From Enterobacteria phage ATK47, in sequence record NC_055708.1: a DNA stretch of 64,000 nucleotides; one strand, written 5' to 3'. Positions 3,953 through 62,857 of this stretch are shown in pieces. The stretch's first letter is position 1. Each line of letters begins with the position of its first letter. The notes under the pieces were generated by a model. It made no database searches. It worked only from the letters and a program-made list of their open reading frames with translations, and was not told the DNA's origin. The translations under genes and the position numbers were made by a program.

Positions 3953-4263
3953 GAAGCCGGGTCGCTACCGGCAAGTCGTCGGACTGATGTTCCCTGAGTA
4001 AGGACTGGTCTTAATAAATCTTTATGATTTGTTAATATCCCCTTACATCACAGCAGAAACGGCGCACAAAATTATCGATTCGAGGAAATATCTTTGCCGT
4101 AATCCGAGTAGCGTTTTTGACGGAACGTTCGGATATGGTCGAGATATGGCCTTTTAAAAATATTGAGTAGCGTCAACTGCTTAATAACCAGGTTCAAATC
4201 CCGGCGTTTCGTACAAACACTTGCCTTAGCAGGTGGAACCCCGACAAGGTTGCCGCAAGGCTT

Positions 4264-4290
4264 AGCCCCTTCCGAAAGGTTGGGGCTTTT
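4264..4290 (+). terminator. rho-independent terminator hairpin (gcccc..GAAA..ggggc + T-run), copy 1 of 3
   Basis: GC stem, tetraloop, U-run. Confidence 0.55.
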
Positions 4291-4335
4291 GGCATAATAA
4301 TAAATAGATAAGTTAATTAACTTAGGAAAAGCAAC

Positions 4336-4800
4336 ATGAAATCATACGCTGAATTTTTGACTGAACAATCTAGTTCAGATGTAAAAGCCGCTGCGATTGC
4401 AGCAATTCAAGCAGGTAAATATTCTTACAAAGACGCCTCTGATGAAGAACGTTTCCGTTTTATTAGAGATTTTAAAGCCGAAGGTTTTACTAATGCTAAT
4501 ACTGTTAGCCGAGTTTTTAAAAGCCTAGCTGCATCAGGTGAATTGTTCCAGAAAGCTACAGGTAAAGCACCTGCGCCAAAAACAGACCCTAAAGCAGCTC
4601 AAGAAAAAAATATCGCCAAAGGAATTATTTCTAAGTATGAAGCAATTCTTAAAGAGCTTTTAGTAATCAAAACAGAAGGCCAGAAACTGGCACGAGCACA
4701 TAGCTTCAAAGATAATCCTCACGCTCATAGCCTTGAGTATGTTGAAGATATCCAAAAACTTATTAAAGACCGTATCTGGTCTGCTAAACAAATTAAATAA
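4336..4800 (+). CDS. internal-protein-like (MKSYAEFLTE N-terminus)
   Basis: CTS-like N-terminus; SD AGGAAAAG. Confidence 0.55.
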   Translation: MKSYAEFLTEQSSSDVKAAAIAAIQAGKYSYKDASDEERFRFIRDFKAEGFTNANTVSRVFKSLAASGELFQKATGKAPAPKTDPKAAQEKNIAKGIISKYEAILKELLVIKTEGQKLARAHSFKDNPHAHSLEYVEDIQKLIKDRIWSAKQIK

Positions 4801-4806
4801 TAGAAT

Positions 4807-4834
4807 GCCCCTTCCTTATGGTTGGGGCCTTTTG
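4807..4834 (+). terminator. rho-independent terminator, copy 2 of conserved hairpin
   Basis: gcccc ttcc ttat gg tt ggggc followed by CTTTT. Confidence 0.55.
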
Positions 4835-4866
4835 GTATCTAGGGCATAAAAATATTTCATAAAGAT

Positions 4867-4906
4867 GTTTACTTCTTCCCTAGATGTGTTACTATAGATT
4901 TATCAA
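4867..4906 (+). promoter_or_regulatory. early promoter (GTTTAC, TACTAT)
   Basis: consensus elements upstream of 4924 gene. Confidence 0.5.
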
Positions 4907-4923
4907 CCACAGAGGAAAATATT

Positions 4924-5427
4924 ATGAGTCTTTACACTGAACTGAATAAAAAATCTGAAGAATCTGCTGAAACTATTTTTAAAAACGTGCAAAAGCGTAT
5001 TTTGGAAAAGATGTACGATGCAGCATCTAAAGGTGAAAAATCTTGCCGGTTTCCGATGAGGTGTTCTTCTGATTTATGCGCAAATACTATTGAATGGCTG
5101 GAAAGTGAAGGTCTTACGGTAGAGAAAAACCCGGCGACTTCTATTGACAGTGAATCATATATTAGTATTTCTTGGGATAAATCAAGGGTAGAAGAGAAAG
5201 ATGGTGATTGGGTTGTAGATGTTAAAACTTCTGATGGTGGACGTTCTGTTGAAGTTTCAGCTGTAGTTAAAGGTACCCACGGACAAAGGACTTGGGGTTG
5301 GGGTGGTGAAGAAAAAGAAATTGTTCTTAGTGTGATTGCAAGGTCTACTAGCAATAAAATTGCCCAGAGCATCATCTATGCTGCATGTATCGAAGCTGGA
5401 AAAATTTGCAAAATTAAAAATAAATGA
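4924..5427 (+). CDS. hypothetical protein
   Basis: 167 aa ORF with SD AGAGGAAAA; the antisense ORF 4932..5375 is treated as its shadow. Confidence 0.5.
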   Translation: MSLYTELNKKSEESAETIFKNVQKRILEKMYDAASKGEKSCRFPMRCSSDLCANTIEWLESEGLTVEKNPATSIDSESYISISWDKSRVEEKDGDWVVDVKTSDGGRSVEVSAVVKGTHGQRTWGWGGEEKEIVLSVIARSTSNKIAQSIIYAACIEAGKICKIKNK

Positions 5428-5485
5428 TGTACAAACACCATGGACGGTGTTACTATAGACCTATCAAATCAAGAGGAGAAACAAA

Positions 5486-5713
5486 ATGGCTAAAGTTAGT
5501 ATTGATGTCGTTGATTATGAATACACAGAAGAAGTTATTCGCAACCGTCACCCTGAAGTTCGTATCGATTCAGTACAAGATTCCAAGTTCTGGACAACTG
5601 AGCTTAATCTGAGTGGTCCTTATGAAGCTGTTAAGAAGTTCATGGTTGAAGAATACTGCGAAGGAATGCACCCGGAAGACGCCAAGTTTTATGTCAATTT
5701 GATTAAAAAATAA
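5486..5713 (+). CDS. hypothetical protein
   Basis: 75 aa ORF with SD AGAGGAG. Confidence 0.5.
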   Translation: MAKVSIDVVDYEYTEEVIRNRHPEVRIDSVQDSKFWTTELNLSGPYEAVKKFMVEEYCEGMHPEDAKFYVNLIKK

Positions 5714-5748
5714 TTTACAAACTCTTGAGAGCAGAGTATAATGCTCTC
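5714..5748 (+). promoter_or_regulatory. promoter cassette: TTTACAAACTCTTGAGAG..GAGTATAAT with -10 inside palindrome gagagca/tgctctc
   Basis: near-identical second copy at 36017-36052 with compensatory stem changes. Confidence 0.5.
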
Positions 5749-5783
5749 ATTGGATAATAAACCACCAATTGAAAGGTAATAAT

Positions 5784-6377
5784 ATGAACACACTGAAGAA
5801 ACTTGTTGAATTCATCCGCACTAAACTGGGTACTGCTATGGCTAAAAATCTGACTGTCGAAGAACAGTATAACGCAGCTGCAGATAAGTTGATTACCCAA
5901 ATCAAAGAACTAAAAACGGCTTCTGTTAAATCTATTAATGAAGAAAAACGTATTCGCGAACTTGTTAATGAAAAGAACAAGCAAGCCGCTTCTAAGGAAC
6001 GTGAAATTCGTAAGCTCCTGGCTGAAGGACAAGATGTTACCATGCATGCTAAGCTTGGTCTTCTGTATCGTCGAACTGCCGAACAACTTAATACAAAAGC
6101 TGACGGGTATGCCGCTATGCGAATTGAAATTGCTCGTAAGGTGGTTGAACTTGATGATGCTCGTCAGAACCTGGCAATCAAACTCGAATACATTCGTGAA
6201 ACTCGAGCAGCCAATGCCCTTGGTATCTCTACGGCTGATGATGTAATTGAAATCGCTGCACTGACTAAGGTTGATATCGAAGACACTCTGACTCGTGTTG
6301 AAACGTTCAATGGCACTCCAGCTGGTGTCGAAACCACTTCTGCTGATGTACAAGAATATATTAACTCTTTGAAATAA
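5784..6377 (+). CDS. coiled-coil protein of unknown function
   Basis: 197 aa, heptad-rich, SD AAAGGTAA. Confidence 0.5.
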
Positions 6378-6385
6378 AATAATAC

Positions 6386-6408
6386 GGAGGACTCCGGTCC
6401 TCCTTTTG
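6386..6408 (+). terminator. rho-independent terminator (ggaggac tccg gtcctcc TTTT)
   Basis: perfect 7 bp stem and T-run. Confidence 0.6.
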
Positions 6409-6426
6409 GATAATAAAGGAGTTAAC

Positions 6427-7029
6427 ATGCGAAACCAAAATAATGATATTGACTCAATGTTCGAAGAGTTCCGAGATAAGGTAAATCCACCTACGTCCTT
6501 AGTTGATTCATTACGATATGTTGCAACCGGACGTAAATGGTACTGGTCGTCTTCTTATGAGACCACCGAGAAAACGGCTAGCCATAGCAGAAAATCTTTA
6601 TTAGCCCCAGGTATTATGATTCATGATATCGGAGCTATTGCTAAACTAGTTGCAGACCATGATATTAGATTCACTGATTTCGTTGCTCCTACGTGGTCTG
6701 TTTGTTGTTTAAACACTGAATGGGAATATATCAGCGAACGCTCTGAAGATTATTATGGTTTTAGAGATAAGCTTCTGAGGTCTAATATGTTTTATATCGA
6801 TACAGAAGTTCTAGTCGATAATAAAAAATATTACTTTACGTTAATCATCGATTCTGAAACTATGTATGAAGGCAAGCCTTTGCTTAAAAGAGTTGATGCT
6901 TTAAGTGCTATTGATGCGCTTTATGAAACTATGGTTGTTAGTCCTAATTTCACTAACAATTTAATCCTTGAGCAATTTATTATGGAATGTAGAGAATATG
7001 TCAAAGCCAACCCTATACATGCCAAGTAA
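6427..7029 (+). CDS. hypothetical protein with FIMECR motif
   Basis: 200 aa ORF, SD AAAGGAG. Confidence 0.5.
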   Translation: MRNQNNDIDSMFEEFRDKVNPPTSLVDSLRYVATGRKWYWSSSYETTEKTASHSRKSLLAPGIMIHDIGAIAKLVADHDIRFTDFVAPTWSVCCLNTEWEYISERSEDYYGFRDKLLRSNMFYIDTEVLVDNKKYYFTLIIDSETMYEGKPLLKRVDALSAIDALYETMVVSPNFTNNLILEQFIMECREYVKANPIHAK

Positions 7030-7393
7030 GCCCTGGGCGTATGAATACAAGCGTAAATTAATCCCAAATGAAGTACTATTTGGCCCTATTTTAGCTTTAG
7101 CATTTTTAATCTTTATGATTATAGGAGCTGTTTTAGATTCTAGTGAAGTTATATCGTCTGATGCAGCATTTTCATTAATGTTCGTCGCACCACTTATTGT
7201 ACCGTTTTTATTAATGCCTATTAATTGGGCGGGATATTGGCACCAAGGCCGTCATCACAGAGCCCGATTAAGAGAATGGAAAGTTCAGTGCGCAAAAGCC
7301 CAAGCTCAGTATGATGAAGCTGTTAAAAAGTATGAATATGAAGAAGCTATGGAATTCGTTAAGGAAATAAGATGCAAAAGCCTCAACTCTTAA
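7019..7393 (+). CDS. membrane protein, variant C-terminal motif (EFVKEIRC)
   Basis: hydrophobic segments; start uncertain (6998 or 7019). Confidence 0.4.
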   Translation: MPSKPWAYEYKRKLIPNEVLFGPILALAFLIFMIIGAVLDSSEVISSDAAFSLMFVAPLIVPFLLMPINWAGYWHQGRHHRARLREWKVQCAKAQAQYDEAVKKYEYEEAMEFVKEIRCKSLNS

Positions 7394-17499: not shown

Positions 17500-17959
17500 A
17501 AACTATATCAAGGGCGATATTGTCGCCCTGTTTTCTAAAGGTAATAATATTGCTCATGGGTGTAATTGTTTTCATACAATGGGCGCCGGTGTGGCAGGAC
17601 AATTAGCAAAGGCTTATCCAAAAATTCTGGAAGCCGATAAACTTCAAACCGAATTCGGAGACGAGTCTAAACTCGGGACTTATTCGGTTTATGAAAAATA
17701 TTTTAAGACCCATAAAGCTTATTGCTTTAATCTTTATACGCAGTTTGAGCCGGGACCTAATTTTGAGTACTCTGCTTTAATGAATTGTATAATAGAATTA
17801 AATGAATTTGGAAAGAATAAGATAACAAAGCCTGTAATTTATATGCCAAGAATTGGTGCAGGTATTGGTGGTGGAAACTGGGATGTCATCGAAGAGATTT
17901 TAGATACGTATTCCACTAAACTAGAAATTGTGATTGTTGATTGGGAACCGTTATTATGA
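17483..17959 (+). CDS. macro-domain protein (ADP-ribose binding/hydrolase fold)
   Basis: NIAHGCNCFHTMGAGVAGQL and RIGAGIGGGNWDVI resemble macro-domain glycine-rich loops; start approximate (non-ATG). Confidence 0.55.
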   Translation: MQQVIKNYIKGDIVALFSKGNNIAHGCNCFHTMGAGVAGQLAKAYPKILEADKLQTEFGDESKLGTYSVYEKYFKTHKAYCFNLYTQFEPGPNFEYSALMNCIIELNEFGKNKITKPVIYMPRIGAGIGGGNWDVIEEILDTYSTKLEIVIVDWEPLL

Positions 17960-30789: not shown

Positions 30790-31263
30790 ATGTTATTATC
30801 AGGCGCAAAATATAAAGAAGAAAAACAAAAATTTTATGATGCACAGAACGGTAAGTGTCCTATTTGCCACCGTGAATTAGACCCTGATGTTCAAGGTAAC
30901 CATCTTGACCATGACCACGAATTAAAAGGGCCAAAAGCCGGTAGAGTTCGTGGTTTACTATGTAACCTGTGCAATGCAGCAGAAGGTCAAATGAAGCATA
31001 AGTTCAACCGTTCCGGTTTGAAAGGTCAAAACGTTGACTACTTAGAATGGCTTGAAGCTCTTCTTGCTTATTTGAAACAAGATTATTCTGATAATAATAT
31101 CCATCCTAATTTTGTTCCGGATAAAACTAAAGAGTTCTCAAGACTAGGTAAAGAGGAAATGATGACCGAGATGCTTCAAAGAGGATTTGAATATAATGAA
31201 TCTGATACTAAAACACAATTAATAGCTTCATTCAAAAAGCAGCTTAGAAAGAGTTTAAAATGA
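30790..31263 (+). CDS. 49: endonuclease VII (Holliday junction resolvase)
   Basis: MLLSGAKYKEEKQKFYDAQNGKCPIC..HLDHDHEL..LCNLCNAAEGQ; near-identical to remembered T4 gp49; 157 aa. Confidence 0.9.
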   Translation: MLLSGAKYKEEKQKFYDAQNGKCPICHRELDPDVQGNHLDHDHELKGPKAGRVRGLLCNLCNAAEGQMKHKFNRSGLKGQNVDYLEWLEALLAYLKQDYSDNNIHPNFVPDKTKEFSRLGKEEMMTEMLQRGFEYNESDTKTQLIASFKKQLRKSLK

Positions 31264-33077
31264 AAATTGAAAAAGAAATTGAAGGATTAATTTATAAAAC
31301 TAATAAAGATCTTTTGAACGAGAATGCTAATAAAGATTCTCGTGTTTTTCCAACTCAACGGGACCTTATGGCTGGTATTGTGTCTAAGCACATTGCCAAA
31401 AATATGGTCCCGTCTTTTATTATGAATGCGCATGAAAGCGGAATCATTCATATGCATGATATTGATTATTCTCCTGCTCTTCCATTTACTAATTGCTGTT
31501 TAGTCGATTTAAAGGGGATGCTTGAGAATGGATTTAAATTAGGCAATGCTCAAATTGAAACGCCTAAATCGATTGGTGTTGCTACTGCAATTATGGCACA
31601 AATTACTGCACAAGTTGCTTCCCATCAATACGGCGGAACGACTTTTGCTAATGTAGATAAAGTACTTTCTCCTTATGTTAAACGCACCTATGCAAAACAT
31701 ATTGAGGATGCAGAAAAATGGCAAATCGCTGATGCGTTGAATTATGCTCAATCCAAAACAGAAAAAGATGTCTATGACGCATTCCAAGCTTATGAATATG
31801 AAGTAAATACTCTCTTTAGTTCAAACGGACAAACGCCTTTTGTAACAATTACATTTGGTACTGGAACTGATTGGACCGAACGAATGATTCAGAAGGCAAT
31901 TCTTAAAAACCGCATTAAAGGTCTTGGTCGTGATGGAATAACTCCTATTTTCCCTAAACTTGTTATGTTTGTCGAAGAGGGTGTTAATCTTTATAAAGAC
32001 GATCCGAACTATGATATTAAGCAACTCGCTCTAGAGTGTGCAAGCAAAAGAATGTATCCTGACATTATTTCTGTTAAGAATAATAAAGCTATTACCGGTT
32101 CTTCAGTTCCAGTTTCTCCAATGGGTTGCCGTAGTTTCTTGAGCGTATGGAAAGATTCGACCGGTAATGAAATTCTTGATGGACGTAATAATCTCGGTGT
32201 TGTAACACTGAATCTTCCTCGTATCGCATTAGATTCTTATATTGGAACACAGTTCAATGAACAGAAATTTGTTGAATTATTCAACGAACGAATGGATCTG
32301 TGCTTTGAAGCTTTGATGTGTAGAATTAGTTCCTTAAAAGGAGTTAAAGCGACTGTTGCTCCTATTCTTTACCAAGAAGGTGCATTCGGGGTTCGTCTTA
32401 AACCTGACGACGATATAATTGAGTTATTTAAAAACGGTAGAAGTTCAGTGTCTTTAGGATACATTGGTATTCATGAATTGAATATTCTTGTTGGCCGTGA
32501 TATTGGACAAGAAATTTTAACTAAGATGAATGCTCATCTTAAACAGTGGACTGAAAGAACTGGATTTGCTTTTAGCTTGTATTCTACACCTGCTGAAAAC
32601 CTTTGTTATCGTTTCTGTAAACTCGACACAGAAAAATACGGAAGTGTAAAGGATGTCACTGATAAAGGCTGGTACACTAATAGTTTCCATGTTTCAGTAG
32701 AAGAAAATATTACTCCGTTTGAAAAGATTTCTCGTGAAGCGCCATATCATTTCATTGCGACAGGTGGTCACATTTCTTATGTTGAACTTCCAGATATGAA
32801 AAACAATTTAAAGGGACTTGAGGCTGTCTGGGATTATGCTGCACAACATTTAGATTATTTTGGTGTTAATATGCCAGTAGATAAGTGTTTTACATGCGGA
32901 AGCACCCATGAAATGACTCCTACTGAAAACGGATTTGTTTGTTCAGTTTGCGGAGAAACTGATCCTAAAAAGATGAACACTATAAGAAGGACCTGCGGTT
33001 ATTTGGGAAATCCGAACGAGCGCGGATTTAATCTAGGCAAAAATAAAGAAATCATGCATAGGGTTAAACACCAATGA
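31260..33077 (+). CDS. nrdD: anaerobic ribonucleoside-triphosphate reductase NrdD
   Basis: 605 aa; C-terminal glycyl-radical motif RRTCGYLG and Zn ribbon CFTCGS..CSVCG. Confidence 0.9.
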   Translation: MKIEKEIEGLIYKTNKDLLNENANKDSRVFPTQRDLMAGIVSKHIAKNMVPSFIMNAHESGIIHMHDIDYSPALPFTNCCLVDLKGMLENGFKLGNAQIETPKSIGVATAIMAQITAQVASHQYGGTTFANVDKVLSPYVKRTYAKHIEDAEKWQIADALNYAQSKTEKDVYDAFQAYEYEVNTLFSSNGQTPFVTITFGTGTDWTERMIQKAILKNRIKGLGRDGITPIFPKLVMFVEEGVNLYKDDPNYDIKQLALECASKRMYPDIISVKNNKAITGSSVPVSPMGCRSFLSVWKDSTGNEILDGRNNLGVVTLNLPRIALDSYIGTQFNEQKFVELFNERMDLCFEALMCRISSLKGVKATVAPILYQEGAFGVRLKPDDDIIELFKNGRSSVSLGYIGIHELNILVGRDIGQEILTKMNAHLKQWTERTGFAFSLYSTPAENLCYRFCKLDTEKYGSVKDVTDKGWYTNSFHVSVEENITPFEKISREAPYHFIATGGHISYVELPDMKNNLKGLEAVWDYAAQHLDYFGVNMPVDKCFTCGSTHEMTPTENGFVCSVCGETDPKKMNTIRRTCGYLGNPNERGFNLGKNKEIMHRVKHQ

Positions 33078-33544
33078 ATTATGATAGATTTTATCCTTGC
33101 GATTTTGTGAATGGCCCTGGTTGTAGGGTCGTTCTTTTCGTTACAGGGTGTTTGCATAAATGCGAAGGGTGTTATAATAAATCAACATGGAATGCTAGAA
33201 ATGGTGTTCCATTCACTGGTGAAACACTAGAACAATTAATTGAATGTTTGAATAATGATTATATAGAAGGATTAACTATAACCGGAGGTGACCCTCTCTA
33301 TCCTGATAACCGAGATGTTATTCATTGCATTGTTCAAACAGTAAAAAATCTTTATCCTAATAAAAGCATTTGGTTGTGGACAGGATATACGTTTGAAGAT
33401 ATTAAACAACTAGAAATGCTTAAATATGTTGATGTTATTATTGATGGGAAGTATGAGAAAAATCTTCCGACCAAAAAACTGTGGCGAGGATCAGATAATC
33501 AGCGACTTTGGTCAAATACCGATGGGGTGTGGAAACATGATTAA
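33074..33544 (+). CDS. nrdG: anaerobic RNR activating protein NrdG (radical SAM)
   Basis: Cys cluster GCLHKCEGCYN; downstream of nrdD. Confidence 0.8.
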   Translation: MNYDRFYPCDFVNGPGCRVVLFVTGCLHKCEGCYNKSTWNARNGVPFTGETLEQLIECLNNDYIEGLTITGGDPLYPDNRDVIHCIVQTVKNLYPNKSIWLWTGYTFEDIKQLEMLKYVDVIIDGKYEKNLPTKKLWRGSDNQRLWSNTDGVWKHD

Positions 33545-47873: not shown

Positions 47874-47913
47874 TATAATGCCATGGACGGTAAACTAATT
47901 AAATGAGAGAAAT

Positions 47914-48549
47914 ATGAAAACTACACCAATCACTATCGCTATTGACGCAATCGTAAAACAAGCTTCTTCTTTGGCTACTATGGCCAAAGTAATTAGTCAA
48001 AACCCTGCTCGTTATAATGCTATTCTAGAAACTCTTCGACGCCCAGGACTTAGTAATTATGAAAGCCGAGTAATTATTACAGGTGTTGGTAAGAATGCTA
48101 ATATTGCAACTAAAGCTTCTGAGACATTTGCTTCACTCGGTATCCCAAGTATGTACTTGAACACCGGGCATTATTCTCACGGTGATGCAGGATTCATTGC
48201 GCCTAATGATGTGTTGATTCATATTAGTCGTTCTGGTAAGACTGAAGAAATGATAGGTGTTGCTAAACATCTTCGTATGATTCGTCCTCAGGTTAAACAG
48301 ATTCTGTTACATTGTAACCCTGACATTCCACAAGAATACGAAGCTCTTTTTGATTATACGTTCTGTACCGGTATCGCGGTAGAAGTTGACGAGAACTCTT
48401 TAGCTCCGACAATGTCCACTACATTGTTGTTAGCGCTTATCGATACGTTCGCTATCAACCTTTCGTCTGAACGCGGATTTACCTCTAATGACTTCCTTAA
48501 GTTCCACCCTGGTGGTGCACTAGGTGCCATGTTACGAGGCGAGCAATGA
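47914..48549 (+). CDS. SIS-domain sugar-phosphate isomerase (KdsD/GutQ arabinose-5-phosphate isomerase-like, no CBS domains)
   Basis: ITGVGKNANIATK, HGDAGFI, ISRSGKTEE, LAPTMSTT and FHPGGALG match SIS-domain isomerase motifs. Confidence 0.7.
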   Translation: MKTTPITIAIDAIVKQASSLATMAKVISQNPARYNAILETLRRPGLSNYESRVIITGVGKNANIATKASETFASLGIPSMYLNTGHYSHGDAGFIAPNDVLIHISRSGKTEEMIGVAKHLRMIRPQVKQILLHCNPDIPQEYEALFDYTFCTGIAVEVDENSLAPTMSTTLLLALIDTFAINLSSERGFTSNDFLKFHPGGALGAMLRGEQ

Positions 48550-48689
48550 AAGCAATAACAATAGGACTTTTACTATTGATGCTTGTCATGACTATCTACT
48601 GGAGCTTAACGGCTCCAGTAATGATTCCGACTCTTATAATCGGATGGATTATGATTGGACTACAAGCAAAGTATGAATGCTTTAACTAG
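48546..48689 (+). CDS. small hydrophobic protein (47 aa, below ORF-track cutoff)
   Basis: translated by hand; ATGA overlap with upstream stop. Confidence 0.3.
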   Translation: MKAITIGLLLLMLVMTIYWSLTAPVMIPTLIIGWIMIGLQAKYECFN

Positions 48690-48730
48690 AATAGTGTACA
48701 ATACACCTACTTACCAATGAGGACCACAAC

Positions 48731-50416
48731 ATGAAAAAAGCTGTTATTCTTGGTGCTGGACTGGCAACTCGTTTGTATCCAATAACGCATCATATTCCTA
48801 AGGTGCTTGTTAACTATAAACAAGACACTATTCTGAGCAATTTGTATACAATTTATTCTGACCTTGGCGCAGATGAAATTATTGTAGTAGTTCATTCAAA
48901 ATTTGCTGAAACTGTTCGAGCTTATTGCGAGCAAGAAGGGTTCAATGCGACTATTCGTACAGTTGATGAAGCGTATGGTTCTGCTTATGCTCTTGCTAAA
49001 TTATACAAAGATTTAGATGGCCATAATGTAATTGTTAACTGGTGTGATATTATTCCTGATTTTGGTTCATGGTCTTGGAATGTTAACGCAATCTATGTTA
49101 AGGGTGATGAATGTCGATATAATTTCGATGGTGAAAATATCACTAACGTAGGTTCAACAGGCGGTAATGTTGTAGGAATTTATCAGTTCAAAGACTGGGA
49201 ATTCTACATGGGTTCTACTGATGAGGAAATTCACGAATACTGCAAAGGACGTGATTTCGTAGAATTCCTTTACGGCAGTGCATTCAATAAATCAGAGCTT
49301 ATGAATCTAATTGATTTAGGTGATATGCCTAAACTTGAAAAAGCTCATGAAGTTCGTGAACTTAATCGTAGTTTTAATGCAGTTGAAATTGGCGAAGAAA
49401 CTGTAACTAAATTCGCGTTAACCGAACAAGGTCGAGCTCTTCAGAAAGATGAGATTTCATGGTATTTGAAAGTGAAATCAGATTCAGTCCCTCAGTTAGT
49501 TTCTGTTAATGAAAATAACTTTGAAATGGAACGTATTAAAGGTAAGCCGGCATTTGAATATATTAAATCCAAATCAAGTCTTGCTCGTCCACAAATTGTT
49601 GATGCAATTTTAGATGCACTGAAATTCAGCACAGACACTTATTTTGTAAGTCCTGAAACTGTTCGCCGTGATTTCACTAAAGAGTTCTATACGAAAGTTA
49701 TTGATCGTTGTGAAAGCATTCAGCCATTGATTGATTCATTTGGTAAAATCACACACGTGAACTACACTAAGATTGGACGTCTGAAGCCAATGTTGAAACA
49801 AGCTTTAGAACATCTTATTCGTTATCATAACCGTTCTCAGGGACAGTACTCTGTTATTCACGGTGATCCGAACTTCAGTAATACTATGATTACTGATAAC
49901 GGCGAAGTCAAGTTTATCGACCCTCGTGGATATTTTGGTGAAACCAAGATTTACGGACCAAAATTGTATGATGAAGCTAAAGTGCTTTATGCTGTTTCAG
50001 GTTATGATGAATTCAACGCTAATCCGACCTGGGGCCAGTTTATTATTGATGAAACAACTTGTAATGTGACTATTAACATCAATCCATTAGTTTACAAATA
50101 TGGAAAGATGAGTTCGTTTAACGAGTATCATCATTTGGCAGTAGCAATTATCTGGATTGCATTAGGTGGTTATTTCAAGAATAATCCACTTAAAGCGGTA
50201 GCCGCATATTATAAAGGTATGGAACTTCTGACTAAGCAATTACGTAACATGGGCCGTGTACTTCAAGATGGCTCTATTAGTTATGACGTAGCAGAACCTG
50301 TAACGGCTACTCTGATTACAAAAAATCCTGGTAAATGGGTACTAACTGATAAAGAAACTGGTGTTTCCTATCGTCCAATCGGTGGCGATATCACTCATCA
50401 ATGGGAACGAATCTAA
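48731..50416 (+). CDS. bifunctional sugar-1-phosphate nucleotidyltransferase (N-terminal) / anomeric sugar kinase (C-terminal)
   Basis: N-terminal AVILGAGLATRL as in LicC/RmlA-type nucleotidyltransferases; C-terminal HGDPNFSNTMI...FIDPRG as in choline/aminoglycoside/AmgK kinases. Confidence 0.7.
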   Translation: MKKAVILGAGLATRLYPITHHIPKVLVNYKQDTILSNLYTIYSDLGADEIIVVVHSKFAETVRAYCEQEGFNATIRTVDEAYGSAYALAKLYKDLDGHNVIVNWCDIIPDFGSWSWNVNAIYVKGDECRYNFDGENITNVGSTGGNVVGIYQFKDWEFYMGSTDEEIHEYCKGRDFVEFLYGSAFNKSELMNLIDLGDMPKLEKAHEVRELNRSFNAVEIGEETVTKFALTEQGRALQKDEISWYLKVKSDSVPQLVSVNENNFEMERIKGKPAFEYIKSKSSLARPQIVDAILDALKFSTDTYFVSPETVRRDFTKEFYTKVIDRCESIQPLIDSFGKITHVNYTKIGRLKPMLKQALEHLIRYHNRSQGQYSVIHGDPNFSNTMITDNGEVKFIDPRGYFGETKIYGPKLYDEAKVLYAVSGYDEFNANPTWGQFIIDETTCNVTININPLVYKYGKMSSFNEYHHLAVAIIWIALGGYFKNNPLKAVAAYYKGMELLTKQLRNMGRVLQDGSISYDVAEPVTATLITKNPGKWVLTDKETGVSYRPIGGDITHQWERI

Positions 50417-50802
50417 TGCACCGTGTAGAAAACATGCTTAATCTTTGTTTTGATGTCGATGATTGTATAACAGAGTGGAATAACAATCGTGATTATGTGA
50501 ACTTCAAACCAGACGTCGAAATGGTGACCGCCATTAATGCCCTGTATGATGCAGGGCATACCATAACGCTTTACACTGCTCGTGGTATGAAGTCGGTAGG
50601 TCCTGGTCGTATAGCAATTGACATTCTCCCAAGTCTGATTCAGAACTTGGAAAACATTGGTTTGAAGTACCATAATTTGCTAACACATAAACCAGTATAT
50701 GATTGGATTATCGACGACAAAGCTATGCGTCCTGACGAATTCAAAGCTCTTATGAATAAAGGCGAATTCGAAACATTTAAATCGTATAAACCGAATCTAT
50801 AA
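50416..50802 (+). CDS. HAD-superfamily phosphatase
   Basis: motif I FDVDDCIT; small cap-less HAD architecture; TAATG overlap with upstream gene. Confidence 0.55.
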   Translation: MHRVENMLNLCFDVDDCITEWNNNRDYVNFKPDVEMVTAINALYDAGHTITLYTARGMKSVGPGRIAIDILPSLIQNLENIGLKYHNLLTHKPVYDWIIDDKAMRPDEFKALMNKGEFETFKSYKPNL

Positions 50803-50853
50803 TAATTTAAGTAAGACCTGCAAAAAAAAACCCATCGCATCAATTAACGCGAG

Positions 50854-52023
50854 ATGCAAAAAATGAATACTTTTAAAATCGGAACGAATTTTGATTTAGC
50901 TCTTCTTGATAAAATCGTAGAGCTCAATAAAACTTATCCTAATAGCTTGATAAATGAAGTATACGGCTCTACAAGAGAAATGGCTTTTGTAGCAGCCAGA
51001 CCTGATTTTAGGCTTCCTGACGTTGACAAAAAGATGTTAGAAGACTACGTTAAACGTTGTAACGAATTAGGTATTTGCTTTAACTATACACTCAACACGA
51101 TAAATCCTGGTTCAAAAAGAGAACTAGTTGAGTGGAAGAAGAAAGCTATTCAGGATTATGTTCAGTATCTTTGGTCAATAGGCGTATGGCGTATTACTAT
51201 CGCTAACCCTGTTGTTATGGAAATTGTTCGTGAAGTCAATAAAGACATTGAGATTGAAGTTTCAACAATTCTACATGTTGATGCTGTAACTCAAATCAAA
51301 TACTTGCACGACCAATATAACATCAAAAAAGTCTGTTGCGGAATTCATAAGAACCGTTCAGTTTCTTTCCTGAAGCGTGCAGCAGAGTTTTGCAATAAGA
51401 ACAATATAATATTTGAAGTTCTTGTAAATGAGTTCTGTTCTAATGCTGGTAAAGGGTATACAACACATTGTAGCTATCGTGACTCTTGCTATATTTTCCA
51501 TAGTACTGATGTTACCGCTGATGATGCTAAATCCTTAAATGGATATCCTATGCAGCACTGTATTAAAGCTCGTGATACAGACCCATTTAACTGGCTGAGA
51601 ACTCGTTTTGTTCGTCCTCAAGATTTGAAACTTTATAATGATATTGGTATCACTCAATTCAAAGTTTCAGGACGTACAGGTAGCACAGACTACATTTTGA
51701 AAGTTCTTGAAGCATACGCTTCTGAAAAGTTTGAAGGTAATTTGTTAGAACTGTGGAAGCCTTTAGAGACTATTTTCACTCTTGAAAATGAGACTGAGTT
51801 TTCACATACAGTAAATATTGAAACCTCATTGTTAGACGGTTTTTTAGAAAAAAGGTGGTTCAGACATCCAGATTTCGATTGTGCTAATGAAATCTGCGGG
51901 ACGACGTGTACATATTGTGAAAGATATTATAAACGTCAGTTATCTAAAAATGGGTTATCAGAAAACTCTATATCTATTATTGATATAACTAACTCTGATG
52001 ACGCTTTGAGGTACCCGGAATGA
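50854..52023 (+). CDS. hypothetical protein, Cys-rich C-terminus (candidate sugar-modifying or transferase enzyme)
   Basis: 389 aa ORF inside the island; CANEICGTTCTYC cluster; function not recognisable. Confidence 0.45.
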   Translation: MQKMNTFKIGTNFDLALLDKIVELNKTYPNSLINEVYGSTREMAFVAARPDFRLPDVDKKMLEDYVKRCNELGICFNYTLNTINPGSKRELVEWKKKAIQDYVQYLWSIGVWRITIANPVVMEIVREVNKDIEIEVSTILHVDAVTQIKYLHDQYNIKKVCCGIHKNRSVSFLKRAAEFCNKNNIIFEVLVNEFCSNAGKGYTTHCSYRDSCYIFHSTDVTADDAKSLNGYPMQHCIKARDTDPFNWLRTRFVRPQDLKLYNDIGITQFKVSGRTGSTDYILKVLEAYASEKFEGNLLELWKPLETIFTLENETEFSHTVNIETSLLDGFLEKRWFRHPDFDCANEICGTTCTYCERYYKRQLSKNGLSENSISIIDITNSDDALRYPE

Positions 52024-52259
52024 TTTCTAGAAAAACTTTTAACCACCAACTTAATGAAGAGATTTTGACTATAAAACTGAACACTAACGAACAAATTCTT
52101 AAAAAGGCCCTTATGGGCCTGTTTGAAACCAAAGCGGCTAAAGTGATTAAAGAACCTGTTCAATTGGAATACTACACTGATGCATTCCTTCATAGTGTTC
52201 TTGGAAGTATAGATTCTGAAGCTTTACGTTATATCAACATTGCCAAGAAATTCAAATAA
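52020..52259 (+). CDS. hypothetical protein
   Basis: 79 aa ORF, ATGA overlap. Confidence 0.4.
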   Translation: MISRKTFNHQLNEEILTIKLNTNEQILKKALMGLFETKAAKVIKEPVQLEYYTDAFLHSVLGSIDSEALRYINIAKKFK

Positions 52260-52301
52260 GCTTTACGAATTGAGTATATAATAAATTGTATTGAGGTAAA
52301 C

Positions 52302-53018
52302 ATGGGAAAACATAACACAATGAAATATATCAAAGCCGCAGATTTTCAAGCCGCATTTAAAGCAGTCAATCGTGAAATTTTAGAAAATCCTGAATTCGTA
52401 ACTGATTCTCGTATTGGACGTTGTAATGAAATCGGGTCCATGACAGTAGTTGTTGACAATCCATCATCATTCAAAATGACCGACCCACGTATTAACCGCA
52501 TCTCTTATGAATATGCCGAAGACTTCTGGAAGTTTATGATTTCTGGTGGTACTGATGCAGAAGAAGCGTTTAAGGCATATCCTAATGTCGCTAAATTTAT
52601 TTCTAAACCTAAATCAGACGCTTTGCCGGCGAACTTCAACACTTTCTATGGTCCTCGCATTGCGGCCCAATTACCAGCTCTTCTAAAAGAACTTAAAGAG
52701 AAACCTAACTCTCGAAGAGTTGTGTTCCAAATTCTAGAAAGTTCTGATCAGGCTTTGCTTGATTCGGACGAAACACTTGAATATCCATGTACTGACTCAG
52801 TGACTTATTATATTCGCGATGGTAAGCTTTATACCCACTGTCATATGCGTTCTCAGAACTGTGCTGTTGTTATGCAGTTGGATTTTTATCTCCAAGGAAA
52901 ATTACTTCATTATATCGCTAACGAATGCGGCGTAGAAGTTGGTGATTATACTCATACCATGGTAAGTGCCCATGTGTTTGAACGTGATTTTGATTATGTT
53001 AAAGGATTCCTTGACTAA
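52302..53018 (+). CDS. thymidylate-synthase-family deoxypyrimidylate hydroxymethylase (gp42-like, divergent)
   Basis: KPNSRRVVF, nucleophile motif YPCTDSVTYYIRD, MRSQN...QLDFY align to remembered T4 dCMP hydroxymethylase NPDSRR / MCTNTVQYLIRD / MRSND...RNDY. Confidence 0.7.
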   Translation: MGKHNTMKYIKAADFQAAFKAVNREILENPEFVTDSRIGRCNEIGSMTVVVDNPSSFKMTDPRINRISYEYAEDFWKFMISGGTDAEEAFKAYPNVAKFISKPKSDALPANFNTFYGPRIAAQLPALLKELKEKPNSRRVVFQILESSDQALLDSDETLEYPCTDSVTYYIRDGKLYTHCHMRSQNCAVVMQLDFYLQGKLLHYIANECGVEVGDYTHTMVSAHVFERDFDYVKGFLD

Positions 53019-53917
53019 TGGCTATTTTCCGCGTACCAATCTTGAGTATGCGGTCTTATGAAACTGGACAGTATGCTATCCTTAAGGATGGCAACTTCCA
53101 ACTTCATTTGCACCGTGCTAATCCAGGTGATGTGATTACATATCCACGTAATGCATCTGATATTAAAGAATGTGAACGTCTTTTCCCGGAATTTAAGTTT
53201 GTTCCATTATGGTATAAAGATAACGCGTATAACACTCGTAAATATTTCTGGTCTGAAAATGAATTTGTGGTTGATTCATTAATTGCTTATTATGATTGTG
53301 ATTTTCTAATAACAGATATCACTGGATATGACGGCGCTTTTGATGTAGAATTCAATTTCAATATCACTGCAGACCCTAATAAACCACGTTTTTATATTGA
53401 TGAATTCTTAAAAACCGATATGTTGTCGGTTAATCGTTCACTTCAAACTACTGTGTTGAATGAACGTCAAAAAGAAGTGCTGGTTAACGCCGGTGCAGAT
53501 GGTAATAAGATTATCGTAACGCAGAAAGTTATACGTCCTTCCATCATGCAGCGTCTTGTAGGTGATTTGGCTCCTATTCATGTAGATGGTATTTTTCATC
53601 CATTTCGAATTAGTGATCCGTGTTATCATTTTGAACAAGTGGTTGAATGTGCAATTCAATTAGGTCAACCGCTTTATATAACTGATCCAAATAATAGCTT
53701 TGACAGAAATAAGTATCCTGAAGAAGCGCTGATTCGAATTTTTAAACCAACTAAAACTGAGTACTATCAAATTCTTAAAGGACGTCCGAAGATTCAATAT
53801 TTCGAAAATCCTGAAGAAGTATTCCATCCAGGTCTTGGTGAGTTCATCTACTTTAATGCTTTAATTTCTTCGCCGTATAATATACCTAAATACGAAGATG
53901 TCGTAATCGAGGAATAA
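53018..53917 (+). CDS. hypothetical protein at T4 beta-gt position (candidate DNA glycosyltransferase)
   Basis: 299 aa ORF, position only; no motif recognised. Confidence 0.4.
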   Translation: MAIFRVPILSMRSYETGQYAILKDGNFQLHLHRANPGDVITYPRNASDIKECERLFPEFKFVPLWYKDNAYNTRKYFWSENEFVVDSLIAYYDCDFLITDITGYDGAFDVEFNFNITADPNKPRFYIDEFLKTDMLSVNRSLQTTVLNERQKEVLVNAGADGNKIIVTQKVIRPSIMQRLVGDLAPIHVDGIFHPFRISDPCYHFEQVVECAIQLGQPLYITDPNNSFDRNKYPEEALIRIFKPTKTEYYQILKGRPKIQYFENPEEVFHPGLGEFIYFNALISSPYNIPKYEDVVIEE

Positions 53918-53918
53918 A

Positions 53919-54467
53919 ATGGCTAAAATTATTTTAGTAGATGGCCCAGATAATGCTGGTAAAACAACTTTCATTAATGACATAATGGAAATTAGTGAAA
54001 GATATGTAAAGATTGATTTCCCTAAACGAACAGTTGATGGACGTTTCGATGTTAAGTCTCGAAATGAAGTTGGCTGTTTCGAAACGATGTTGAATTATTT
54101 AGACCCTACTAAGATTTATCTGTTAGACCGTGGATATATTAGTAACTGGGTTTATGGACGTATTCGACAAGATGCGGACTCGGTTCTTGACGTTTATGAA
54201 CAGGACTATGTTCGTCTTTGCCAAAACCATGATGTGTTCACAATTATTTTAACACGTAACGAAATGACTGAAAGTTTTGAAGACGACCTTATTACTTTGT
54301 CTTCATTCGGTTTTAATACAGTCATTTCACATTTTGAAGAGTTTGCAATTCATAACAAAATCCAAACGTATCAATTACTTAATCATGATGGTGCTAACAA
54401 AGTTATAGGATTTAATGCAAGCGAACGTAATTATTTGATTACAGAAATTATCAAATGGGCTCGTTAA
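53919..54467 (+). CDS. thymidylate-kinase-like P-loop nucleotide kinase
   Basis: P-loop VDGPDNAGKTT and LDRGYISNWVYG (DRY-type motif) resemble dTMP kinase family. Confidence 0.55.
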   Translation: MAKIILVDGPDNAGKTTFINDIMEISERYVKIDFPKRTVDGRFDVKSRNEVGCFETMLNYLDPTKIYLLDRGYISNWVYGRIRQDADSVLDVYEQDYVRLCQNHDVFTIILTRNEMTESFEDDLITLSSFGFNTVISHFEEFAIHNKIQTYQLLNHDGANKVIGFNASERNYLITEIIKWAR

Positions 54468-54565
54468 GAGCCATTTAAAGTTTTAAATGCTGTATAACCA
54501 TTAGTATATAATTGTCTTATCTTTTAAACATGAGTAAAATATAATGATGCCTATGGAAAAATACA

Positions 54566-62335: not shown

Positions 62336-62857
62336 ATGGCACACTTTAATGAATGTTCACAACTTATTTCTGGTGTTGATAAAGCAGAAGAAGCTTATTT
62401 TAATGCTCTGATTCACGAAGATAAAGACCCACTGCAGGTAATGCTTGATATGCAGAAATCTTTACAGGTTCGTCTGGCAAATGACAAGCCTGAACATAAC
62501 AAACATCCTGATGAATTGGCCACTGCTGGTGATGTTGTTGATTGGCTGCGTAATCAGAAAGATTATATTGATGATGAATTCCGTGAACTGTTGACTTCAC
62601 TTGGTGGTATGAGCAATGGTGAAAAAGCCGCCAGCAGTGTATGGAAGCCATGGAAAGCACAACATGCTGAATATCGAAATCGTCGTATCGATGAACTGTC
62701 TCCTGAAGACCAGCTTGAAATTAAATTTGAAATGATTGATATTCTGCATTTCGTTCTAAATATGTTCCAAGGTCTAGGTCTTTCGGCTGAAGAAATCTTT
62801 AAACTTTACTACTTGAAAAACCAACACAACTTTGAACGTCAGGATAATGGTTACTAA
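62336..62857 (+). CDS. 56: dCTPase/dCDPase gp56 (MazG-like)
   Basis: MAHFNECSQLI...; 173 aa; position next to 61 as in T4. Confidence 0.8.
   Translation: MAHFNECSQLISGVDKAEEAYFNALIHEDKDPLQVMLDMQKSLQVRLANDKPEHNKHPDELATAGDVVDWLRNQKDYIDDEFRELLTSLGGMSNGEKAASSVWKPWKAQHAEYRNRRIDELSPEDQLEIKFEMIDILHFVLNMFQGLGLSAEEIFKLYYLKNQHNFERQDNGY

Follow-up and report, generated by a model that had tools for sequence, protein, structure and literature searches.

What do two genes in the sugar-nucleotide island of Enterobacteria phage ATK47 contribute to the modified DNA of this phage? We analysed a stretch of 64,000 nucleotides (NC_055708.1; hereafter the window) and confirmed in it a 389-amino-acid (aa) open reading frame (ORF) at 50854-52023 and a 299 aa ORF at 53018-53917, both on the + strand. 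A preliminary description of the sequence had called both products unrecognisable and proposed them as sugar transferases acting on DNA. Both genes do lie inside the island, as that description said, but the proposal stands for only one of them. The 299 aa protein has a GT-B fold, and the 389 aa protein has the TIM-barrel fold of the Peptidase_U32 (U32) family. We hold with moderate confidence that the two do different jobs in the pathway to arabinosyl-5-hydroxycytosine: the 299 aa protein would be the first arabinosyltransferase, and the 389 aa protein an oxygen (O2)-independent, prephenate-dependent C5-hydroxylase.

At the stop-codon probability of this sequence (0.072 per codon), open frames this long have a chance of about 3e-13 (389 aa) and 2e-10 (299 aa), and the two proteins have 282 and 137 database homologs, respectively. 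The genes are also translationally coupled to their neighbours. The stop of the 389 aa ORF overlaps the start of a 79 aa ORF (52020-52259, +) in ATGA, the stop of a thymidylate synthase (TS) homolog overlaps the start of the 299 aa gene in TAATG, and the ATG of a Tmk-like kinase gene follows the 299 aa stop after one base. The true start of the U32 protein is probably M4 (window 50863), giving 386 aa (MNTFK...), because most homologs and the annotation of Enterobacteria phage ATK48 begin there.

The 389 aa protein turned out to be recognisable: residues 97-289 match Pfam PF01136 (Peptidase_U32) with 42.2 bits (gathering score, 22.4; E = 7.4e-11), and the protein matches PHROG 5757 with E = 3e-267. 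PDB sequence searches with both proteins gave no match. A search for GT-A and GT-B folds, the check suggested in the preliminary description, placed the 299 aa protein in GT-B but found no likeness to either fold in the 389 aa protein, whose U32 TIM barrel is a non-transferase fold, the outcome named beforehand as speaking against a transferase. That both proteins transfer sugars to DNA, as their common location in the island and the position of the 299 aa gene at the T4 beta-gt site might suggest, therefore retains almost no probability. That the protein is truly a peptidase of the collagenase type, which its family name and the GenBank annotations "peptidase," "putative protease," and "collagenase" imply, is hardly credible either: the U32 "peptidase" label is historical, no catalytic mechanism is known for it, and a protease would be out of keeping with the conserved cysteines and with the neighbouring genes for prephenate supply and nucleotide metabolism described below.

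The cysteine cluster that had been placed at the end of this protein does exist and is conserved, though not as CxxxCxxxxCxxC: it is spaced Cx4Cx3Cx2C (C343-x4-C348-x3-C352-x2-C355) and is followed by 34 residues. Ten cysteines are invariant in the close clade. Among 96 homologs of the wide clade (23-49% identity), about eight remain conserved: C195, C206, C236, and C355 are invariant, C343, C348, and C352 are conserved in at least 90%, and C212 is the majority residue. An alignment that includes the four U32 paralogs of E. coli puts C195 and C212 at the positions of UbiU C169 and C176, which are proven [4Fe-4S] ligands (PMC6747719). The 389 aa protein is no transferase but a divergent U32 enzyme, predicted from its conserved cysteines to be an iron-sulfur (Fe-S) protein. 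On sequence comparison, the phage U32 clade is a separate, large subfamily, very distant from RlhA, TrhP, UbiU, and UbiV; it comprises 1,698 clusters at 50% identity with E<1e-3, 478 of them with E<1e-30, and the NCBIfam UbiU model gives the phage protein 18 bits against a cut-off of 440. As a separate observation, the segment C348-C355 (window 51895-51918) has the radical S-adenosylmethionine (SAM) spacing CX3CX(aromatic)C, with Y354 nearly invariant. We rejected a radical-SAM reading of C348-x3-C352-x-Y-C355, since there is no Radical_SAM Pfam match, the motif is C-terminal, and C343 is a fourth conserved cysteine.

We then considered which DNA modification these proteins serve. Over positions 47900-54500, the sequence matches phage ATK48 with 100% identity and about 150 further Mosigvirus (RB69-like) genomes, including BASEL phage Bas47, with 97-98%, and the window is an RB69-like Mosigvirus. 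DNA of this phage group contains mono- and di-arabinosylated 5-hydroxycytosine (5hoC), with the sugar ether-linked straight to C5 (Lee et al. 2026, PMC13326640; PMC13390438). This supersedes a 2018 report of arabinosyl-hydroxymethylcytosine (PMC6024577), and hydroxymethylcytosine (hmC)-DNA, the acceptor assumed in the preliminary description, has to be replaced by 5hoC (PMC13326640). A source of the hydroxylated base lies between our two genes: the 238 aa TS homolog (52302-53018, +; Pfam Thymidylat_synt; RB69 gp48) is a flavin/O2-dependent 5-hydroxy-dCMP (5hodCMP) synthase and matches the HY126 enzyme (PDB 9iqc; also 9ir2) over its full length with 538 bits. The TS-type enzyme makes 5hodCMP using flavin, with oxygen taken from 18O2 (Lee et al. 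2026, PMC13326640). We found solved structures only for this homolog and for the second HY126 glycosyltransferase.

If the TS homolog can hydroxylate dCMP, what would a U32 protein add? The functionally assigned U32 members in the literature examined here are all tied to O2-independent, prephenate- and Fe-S-dependent hydroxylation of aromatic rings (PMC5727448, PMC6599085, PMC10990095). RlhA (E. coli YdcP) is responsible for 5-hydroxycytidine at C2501 of 23S rRNA and genetically needs prephenate and Fe-S biogenesis (PMC5727448). TrhP is responsible for 5-hydroxyuridine in tRNA and has an O2-dependent partner, TrhO (PMC6599085). UbiU/UbiV hydroxylate ubiquinone precursors, with UbiI/H/F as O2/flavin counterparts, and 18O labelling identified prephenate as the oxygen donor (PMC6747719, PMC10990095). 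Since RlhA makes 5-hydroxycytidine, it does on RNA the base chemistry that the phage needs on a DNA precursor: the modification, C5-hydroxylation of cytosine, is the same (PMC5727448). Like the phage protein, RlhA has a Pfam U32 domain, conserved motif cysteines, and C-terminal cysteines, which are essential in RlhA. It differs in having 653 aa with DUF3656 and a ribosome precursor as its substrate, whereas the phage protein is a single domain of 386-389 aa with a Cx4Cx3Cx2C tail and a presumed deoxynucleotide substrate. The U32 "collagenase-family" protein Mk0906 of Methanopyrus kandleri (PDB 5d88; 247 aa) is 14% identical to the phage protein and lacks its Cys-rich insert and tail.

TrhP/TrhO and UbiU-UbiV/UbiIHF are non-homologous pairs found in facultative anaerobes, in which one O2-dependent and one U32/prephenate-dependent enzyme yield the same product (PMC6599085, PMC6747719, PMC10990095). 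The phage island appears to follow the same logic, and gene context suggests the pairing: a flavin/O2 TS-type 5hodCMP synthase (RB69 gp48, DLP3 gp80, HY126; 9iqc) is encoded in the same operon, 0.3 kb downstream of U32, and the two would share a product. They differ in that the former has a thymidylate synthase fold, a flavin cofactor, and O2 as its oxygen source. The bacterial pairs differ from the phage in their substrates, tRNA U34 and ubiquinone precursors, and UbiU/V is heterodimeric.

For the 299 aa protein, "unrecognisable" was apt at the sequence level. Pfam, NCBIfam, and PDB sequence searches gave no match, no CAZy or Pfam glycosyltransferase signature is present, and, as the preliminary description had it, there is no sequence-detectable homology to T4 alpha- or beta-glucosyltransferase. 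The protein does have GT-B topology with two Rossmann-like domains and is a GT-B glycosyltransferase (hereafter the GT), homologous to RB69 gp46:47, DLP3 gp79, and Thanatos TH1_063. It is 98.7% identical to the copy in HY126, reportedly the phage of the biochemical study by He et al. Its gene does occupy the T4 beta-gt site, between the dCMP-modifying TS homolog and uvsX, in agreement with Thomas 2018, although a Tmk-like kinase gene intervenes. GT4-type GT-B enzymes (6kih, BshA, PimA) typically have 340-400 aa, compared with 299 aa and no Pfam signature here. Unlike the T4 glucosyltransferases, which use UDP-Glc and hmC, the GT has UDP-arabinofuranose (UDP-Araf) as its predicted donor and 5hoC as its predicted acceptor, with an ether link directly on the ring.

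Synteny of the GT gene with the hydroxylase gene is universal, and the Tmk-like kinase gene is always linked to the GT; in some metagenomic phages the two are fused. In one such locus (L034:2594-4411), a 605 aa protein joins a GT299-like domain (residues 49-392, 89 bits) to a Tmk-like kinase domain (415-588), and similar fusions occur in L042, L045, and L049. These fusions may mean that the first sugar is added at the level of the mononucleotide, with glycosylation and phosphorylation sharing one substrate. Lee et al. could not distinguish mononucleotide from DNA as the acceptor of the first sugar (PMC13326640). They had already predicted this gene (RB69 gp46:47 / DLP3 gp79) to be "arabinosyltransferase 1" (PMC13326640), so our assignment of the GT as the putative first (base-proximal) arabinosyltransferase on 5hoC, with its donor, acceptor, and level of action deduced, is confirmatory and of low novelty.

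Two published results count against this role. Purified DLP3 GTs, assayed singly, did not arabosylate 5hoC-DNA (PMC13326640), and TH1_063 was reported to form UDP-xylose from UTP and xylose-1-phosphate (PMC12838424). The second result raises the alternative that the 299 aa protein is a nucleotide-sugar pyrophosphorylase: UDP-xylose was detected by liquid chromatography-mass spectrometry with purified TH1_063 (PMC12838424), and transfer activity has so far been demonstrated for no member of the family. However, GT-B is not a nucleotidyltransferase fold, and a 561 aa protein of the island already includes a dedicated NTP-transferase domain. The TH1_063 transfer assays offered only unmodified C, dCMP, or dCTP as acceptors, never 5hoC (PMC12838424). 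The GT gene is also linked to hydroxylase and kinase genes where sugar-activation genes are missing, as in the metagenomic locus L029. We therefore regard a pyrophosphorylase as very unlikely and keep to the arabinosyltransferase.

From its family, fold, conserved cysteines, and gene associations, all observed here, we infer the substrate, oxygen donor, and physiological role of the U32 protein. In the scheme we propose, the isomerase, kinase/pyrophosphorylase, and phosphatase encoded upstream would supply UDP-Araf. The U32 protein would most likely hydroxylate C5 of a pyrimidine nucleotide, turning dCMP into 5-hydroxy-dCMP, with no need for O2. Prephenate would donate the oxygen, a role also proposed for it with RlhA, TrhP, and UbiU/V, while Fe-S clusters on C195/C206/C212/C236 and C343/C348/C352/C355 would carry electrons. 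It would thus be an O2-independent twin or back-up of the adjacent flavin/O2 enzyme. The GT would then most likely join the first arabinofuranose from UDP-Araf to the 5-OH of 5hoC.

If U32 consumes prephenate, its supply might be visible in the neighbourhood. Prephenate is the product of chorismate mutase, and DAHP synthase catalyses the first step of the pathway toward it. In Klebsiella phage KLB31 and Erwinia phage Virsaitis27, an AroQ chorismate mutase gene lies directly 3′ of U32 with a 4-nt overlap; the proteins score 38.5 and 44.6 bits, respectively, against Pfam CM_2 (cut-off, 27). By tblastn, 48 records of T4-like phages, whose hosts span about 11 enterobacterial genera, encode a monofunctional CM_2 protein, and its gene invariably lies between those for U32 and the TS homolog; a hidden Markov model (HMM) detected chorismate mutase at 15 of 16 non-Mosigvirus T4-like loci. 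Viral contigs outside the T4-like group (all loci bear L numbers here) add the earlier enzyme. In L038 and L039, a DAHP synthase with a C-terminal CM_2 domain is encoded two genes upstream of U32 (in L039, DAHP_synth_1 with 125 bits and CM_2 with 65 bits; NCBIfam DAHP synthase 163 versus KDO8P synthase 53 bits), and with L036 and L041 the fusion occurs at four loci. Stand-alone DAHP synthases adjoin U32 in L008 and L025 (237 versus 63 bits for KDO8P synthase), and a 94 aa CM_2 protein (68 bits) is encoded in L059, abutting a Tmk-like kinase gene and 3.3 kb from U32. We considered KdsA (KDO8P synthase) as the identity of the DAHP_synth_1 neighbours, since a SIS isomerase and a KdsC-like phosphatase are encoded nearby, and rejected it: NCBIfam scores favour DAHP synthase 3-4 fold, and four of these proteins are fused to CM_2.

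The Virsaitis27 locus also has a Seg-like homing endonuclease gene (L003:4352-4990) inserted between the HAD phosphatase gene and U32, and this is therefore a plastic junction where U32 and chorismate mutase come and go. The 79 aa ORF that follows U32 in the window is no chorismate mutase. It has no CM_2 match at E<=10 and only a poor 26% alignment with the phage enzyme encoded at this position elsewhere, and it is distinct from that enzyme because Yersinia phage TG1 and Pectobacterium phage PM2 carry both genes. It has no cysteines, is 75-100% identical within Mosigvirus, and has homologs of about 42-45% identity in Yersinia/Pectobacterium phages, placed between U32 and chorismate mutase. It could be an accessory factor of U32.

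The U32 gene lies between a HAD phosphatase gene and the base-modifying genes of a sugar-nucleotide island, and SIS, NTP-transferase/kinase, and KdsC-like genes occur near U32 at several metagenomic loci. Does the protein then act on the sugar? Lee et al. mention U32-type pathways only as unrelated to the TS-type enzyme and label RB69 gp50, the homolog of our U32 protein, "sugar or heterocycle reductase" in their Table 1 (PMC13326640); the BASEL Bas47 annotation points the same way, and a UDP-arabinose enzyme would be a variant of this idea. The distribution of U32 argues otherwise. Acinetobacter is a strict aerobe, and U32 was found in 0 of 57 Acinetobacter phages carrying the GT. These phages, with the same isomerase, kinase/pyrophosphorylase, phosphatase, and GTs, still attach one, two, or three arabinoses to 5hoC (Lee et al. 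2026, PMC13326640), so U32 is not needed for the sugar chemistry. AfhE and AfhF alone make UDP-arabinose from arabinose-5-phosphate (He et al., per Lee et al. 2026, PMC13326640). A sugar-acting U32 protein is known nowhere, L029-type loci have U32, GT, kinase, and pyrophosphatase genes with no sugar-nucleotide genes nearby, and chorismate mutase and DAHP synthase play no part in pentose chemistry. A role in the sugar branch thus seems quite unlikely to us, and hydroxylation of the base remains our preferred explanation.

Outside the T4-like phages, viral contigs as long as 466 kb also encode U32 homologs (45-56% identity), within replication and nucleotide-metabolism modules. Among 28 such loci, examined with 10 kb flanks, a GT299-like gene lies within 6 kb of U32 on the same strand in 16, and most have a Tmk-like kinase gene; SIS and NTP-transferase/kinase genes are present in several, and some also have a dUTPase_2/MazG-like pyrophosphatase or dCMP deaminase gene. 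A TS-like ORF is present in only 1 of the 28. The clearest example is L029, where overlapping genes encode a dUTPase_2/MazG-like pyrophosphatase, a Tmk-like kinase, a GT299-like protein, U32, a GT47-like protein, and the DNA polymerase III alpha subunit (PolIII-alpha). This operon reproduces the T4 logic, in which a deoxynucleoside monophosphate (dNMP) is made, modified, phosphorylated, polymerised, and glycosylated. With no TS-type hydroxylase gene in the flanks, U32 is the sole candidate in such operons for the step that creates the hydroxyl acceptor. We propose, more tentatively than the role in ATK47 itself, that the 389 aa protein founds a large, mostly phage-borne U32 subfamily of O2-independent, prephenate-dependent deoxypyrimidine C5-hydroxylases, which would work free of TS in a portable module with a GT299-type transferase and a Tmk-like kinase.

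The substrate may vary among these phages. In two huge-phage contigs, of up to 466 kb (L007:7447-9086 and L009:7504-9083), a dCMP deaminase gene lies immediately 5′ of U32; Tmk, uracil-DNA glycosylase (UDG), PolIII-alpha, and single-stranded DNA-binding protein (SSB) genes are near, and the flanks have no GT299 gene. In these phages U32 might act on dUMP and yield 5-hydroxy-dU. In a Phocaeicola faecalis scaffold (L068; NZ_JADNRM010000017, 3984-7137), genes for a 425 aa guanylate-kinase-like/SAM-methyltransferase fusion and for phage protein GP88 precede U32, which could reflect a hydroxylate-then-O-methylate modification (5-methoxypyrimidine) in the DNA of a phage of a strict anaerobe. More generally, U32 could be a prephenate-dependent hydroxylase of something other than dCMP: host tRNA or rRNA (5-hydroxyuridine or 5-hydroxycytidine), cytosine in DNA after replication, or dUMP. 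Its characterised relatives use RNA or quinones, and the deaminase gene right upstream in L007 and L009 would favour dUMP there. But in unrelated phage lineages U32 consistently lies among genes for DNA polymerase and for dNMP-level enzymes (Tmk-like kinase, dNTP pyrophosphatase, dCMP deaminase, and TS-type dCMP hydroxylase), and it co-occurs with a GT whose acceptor has to be hydroxylated. Action on dUMP, or on DNA itself, would in any case amount to a variant of our hypothesis. We consider another substrate unlikely and retain dCMP for ATK47.

When would a phage with an O2-dependent hydroxylase need a second one? The window encodes a gp56-type dCTP pyrophosphatase (62336-62857, +; ATK48 annotation and translation). 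Because gp56 takes dCTP away and provides dCMP, the phage depends on the modified nucleotide to replicate, and since the TS-type enzyme draws its oxygen from O2, the known hydroxylase is without oxidant under anoxia. Located 17 kb upstream of the island are the genes for the anaerobic ribonucleotide reductase NrdD (31260-33077, +) and its activase NrdG (33074-33544, +; Cys motif in the translation), both placed by mapping the ATK48 annotation to the window. Judged from these genes, the phage can make dNTPs under anoxia and is equipped for replication without O2, and U32 together with NrdDG would let this dCTP-destroying phage replicate in anoxic hosts. The pairs TrhP/TrhO and UbiUV/UbiIHF serve the host in a comparable way. 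Across T4-like genera, U32 has the highest median identity in the island (84%; TS homolog, 80.5%; GT, 66%), compared with 72.5% for gp43. U32 matches among 185,579 species genomes are few and mostly on contigs assigned to strict anaerobes.

Several points weigh against a prephenate-dependent hydroxylase for anoxic growth. E. coli Dhakaviruses such as VR5 have the pathway without U32; because of them, U32 has to be seen as accessory and dispensable in at least some enteric phages. The correlation with host aerobiosis is real but weak, with few independent lineages, because it comes mostly from one clade (Acinetobacter Twarogvirinae) and the E. coli Dhakaviruses also lack U32. By tblastn, the window has no chorismate mutase gene, so Mosigviruses would depend on host PheA/TyrA. 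TS homologs of the metagenomic loci could sit beyond the 10 kb flanks. The spacing of the first cysteine set, C195-x10-C206-x5-C212-x23-C236, is unlike the canonical CX6CX15CX3/4C, and the clade HMM gives the E. coli paralogs marginal scores at best: 15.1 bits for TrhP, 8.6 for RlhA, 6.9 for UbiU, and -1.5 for UbiV. Direct hydroxylase activity has been reconstituted in vitro for no U32 protein, according to a 2024 PNAS paper (PMC10990095). In the literature we found neither a biochemical or genetic test of phage U32 nor a statement that it is an O2-independent hydroxylase; He et al. 2026 and Mahler et al. 2025, outside our search, may assign both genes. Full-text searching found no paper joining prephenate, phage, and hydroxycytosine, and none meaningfully joining chorismate mutase, U32, and phage. 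In the window, 17761-17928 (-) has a weak tblastn match to the Virsaitis27 chorismate mutase (E=0.004, window-only; 30% over 56 aa) on the non-coding strand, which is probably due to chance.

In these phages of gut enterobacteria, which destroy dCTP, the O2-needing route is the only one demonstrated to 5-hydroxy-dCMP, and an O2-independent hydroxylase, if our assignment is correct, would explain replication under anoxia. Phage fitness under anoxia should then hinge on the prephenate and Fe-S supply of the host, a matter of interest for phage therapy and gut ecology, and chorismate mutase and DAHP synthase would be phage auxiliary metabolic genes that feed U32. The protein would be the first in the U32 family to use a DNA precursor, with viral DNA hypermodification as a new setting for such enzymes. 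The U32 substrates known so far, namely polyprenyl quinones, ribosome precursors, and tRNA, are bulky or hydrophobic and in our view hard to handle; with a soluble mononucleotide as its substrate, a U32 enzyme would be ideally suited to resolving the mechanism by which prephenate donates oxygen. If the broader reading also holds, a module that hydroxylates, phosphorylates, and glycosylates works TS-free in many uncultured phages of anaerobes, including that of the 466 kb contig. U32 with a GT299-like gene and a kinase gene, in the absence of a TS homolog, marks many uncultured phages that likely have unknown glycosylated pyrimidines (or, in L068, perhaps methoxylated ones).

The eight-gene island is preceded by gp44/62, regA, and gp43 and followed by uvsX, gp40, and gp41. 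Upstream of U32 it encodes a SIS-domain arabinose-5-phosphate isomerase (47914-48549, +; RB69 gp55; Pfam SIS, PHROG 5670; PMC13326640). It is followed by a 561 aa bifunctional sugar kinase/UDP-arabinose pyrophosphorylase (48731-50416, +; AfhE-like; RB69 gp52:53), identified from Pfam NTP_transferase and a kinase-like C-terminus and from Lee et al. 2026 citing He et al. 2026, and by a 133 aa HAD-type phosphatase (50401-50802, +; AfhF-like; RB69 gp51; PHROG 1238; Lee et al. 2026). After U32, the 79 aa ORF, the TS homolog, and the GT comes the 182 aa Tmk-like nucleotide kinase (53919-54467, +; RB69 gp45; PHROG 761). Lee et al. 2026 (PMC13326640) attribute the splitting of the counterparts of the 561 aa and 299 aa genes in the RB69 reference to sequencing errors. 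GenBank KT184310 (ATK48) has both ORFs intact and no annotated coding sequence for either. An ORF of about 47 aa (~48546-48689, +) separates the SIS isomerase gene from the 561 aa gene; it keeps its position across genera, and the Bas47 and KLB31 annotations label its product hypothetical or transmembrane.

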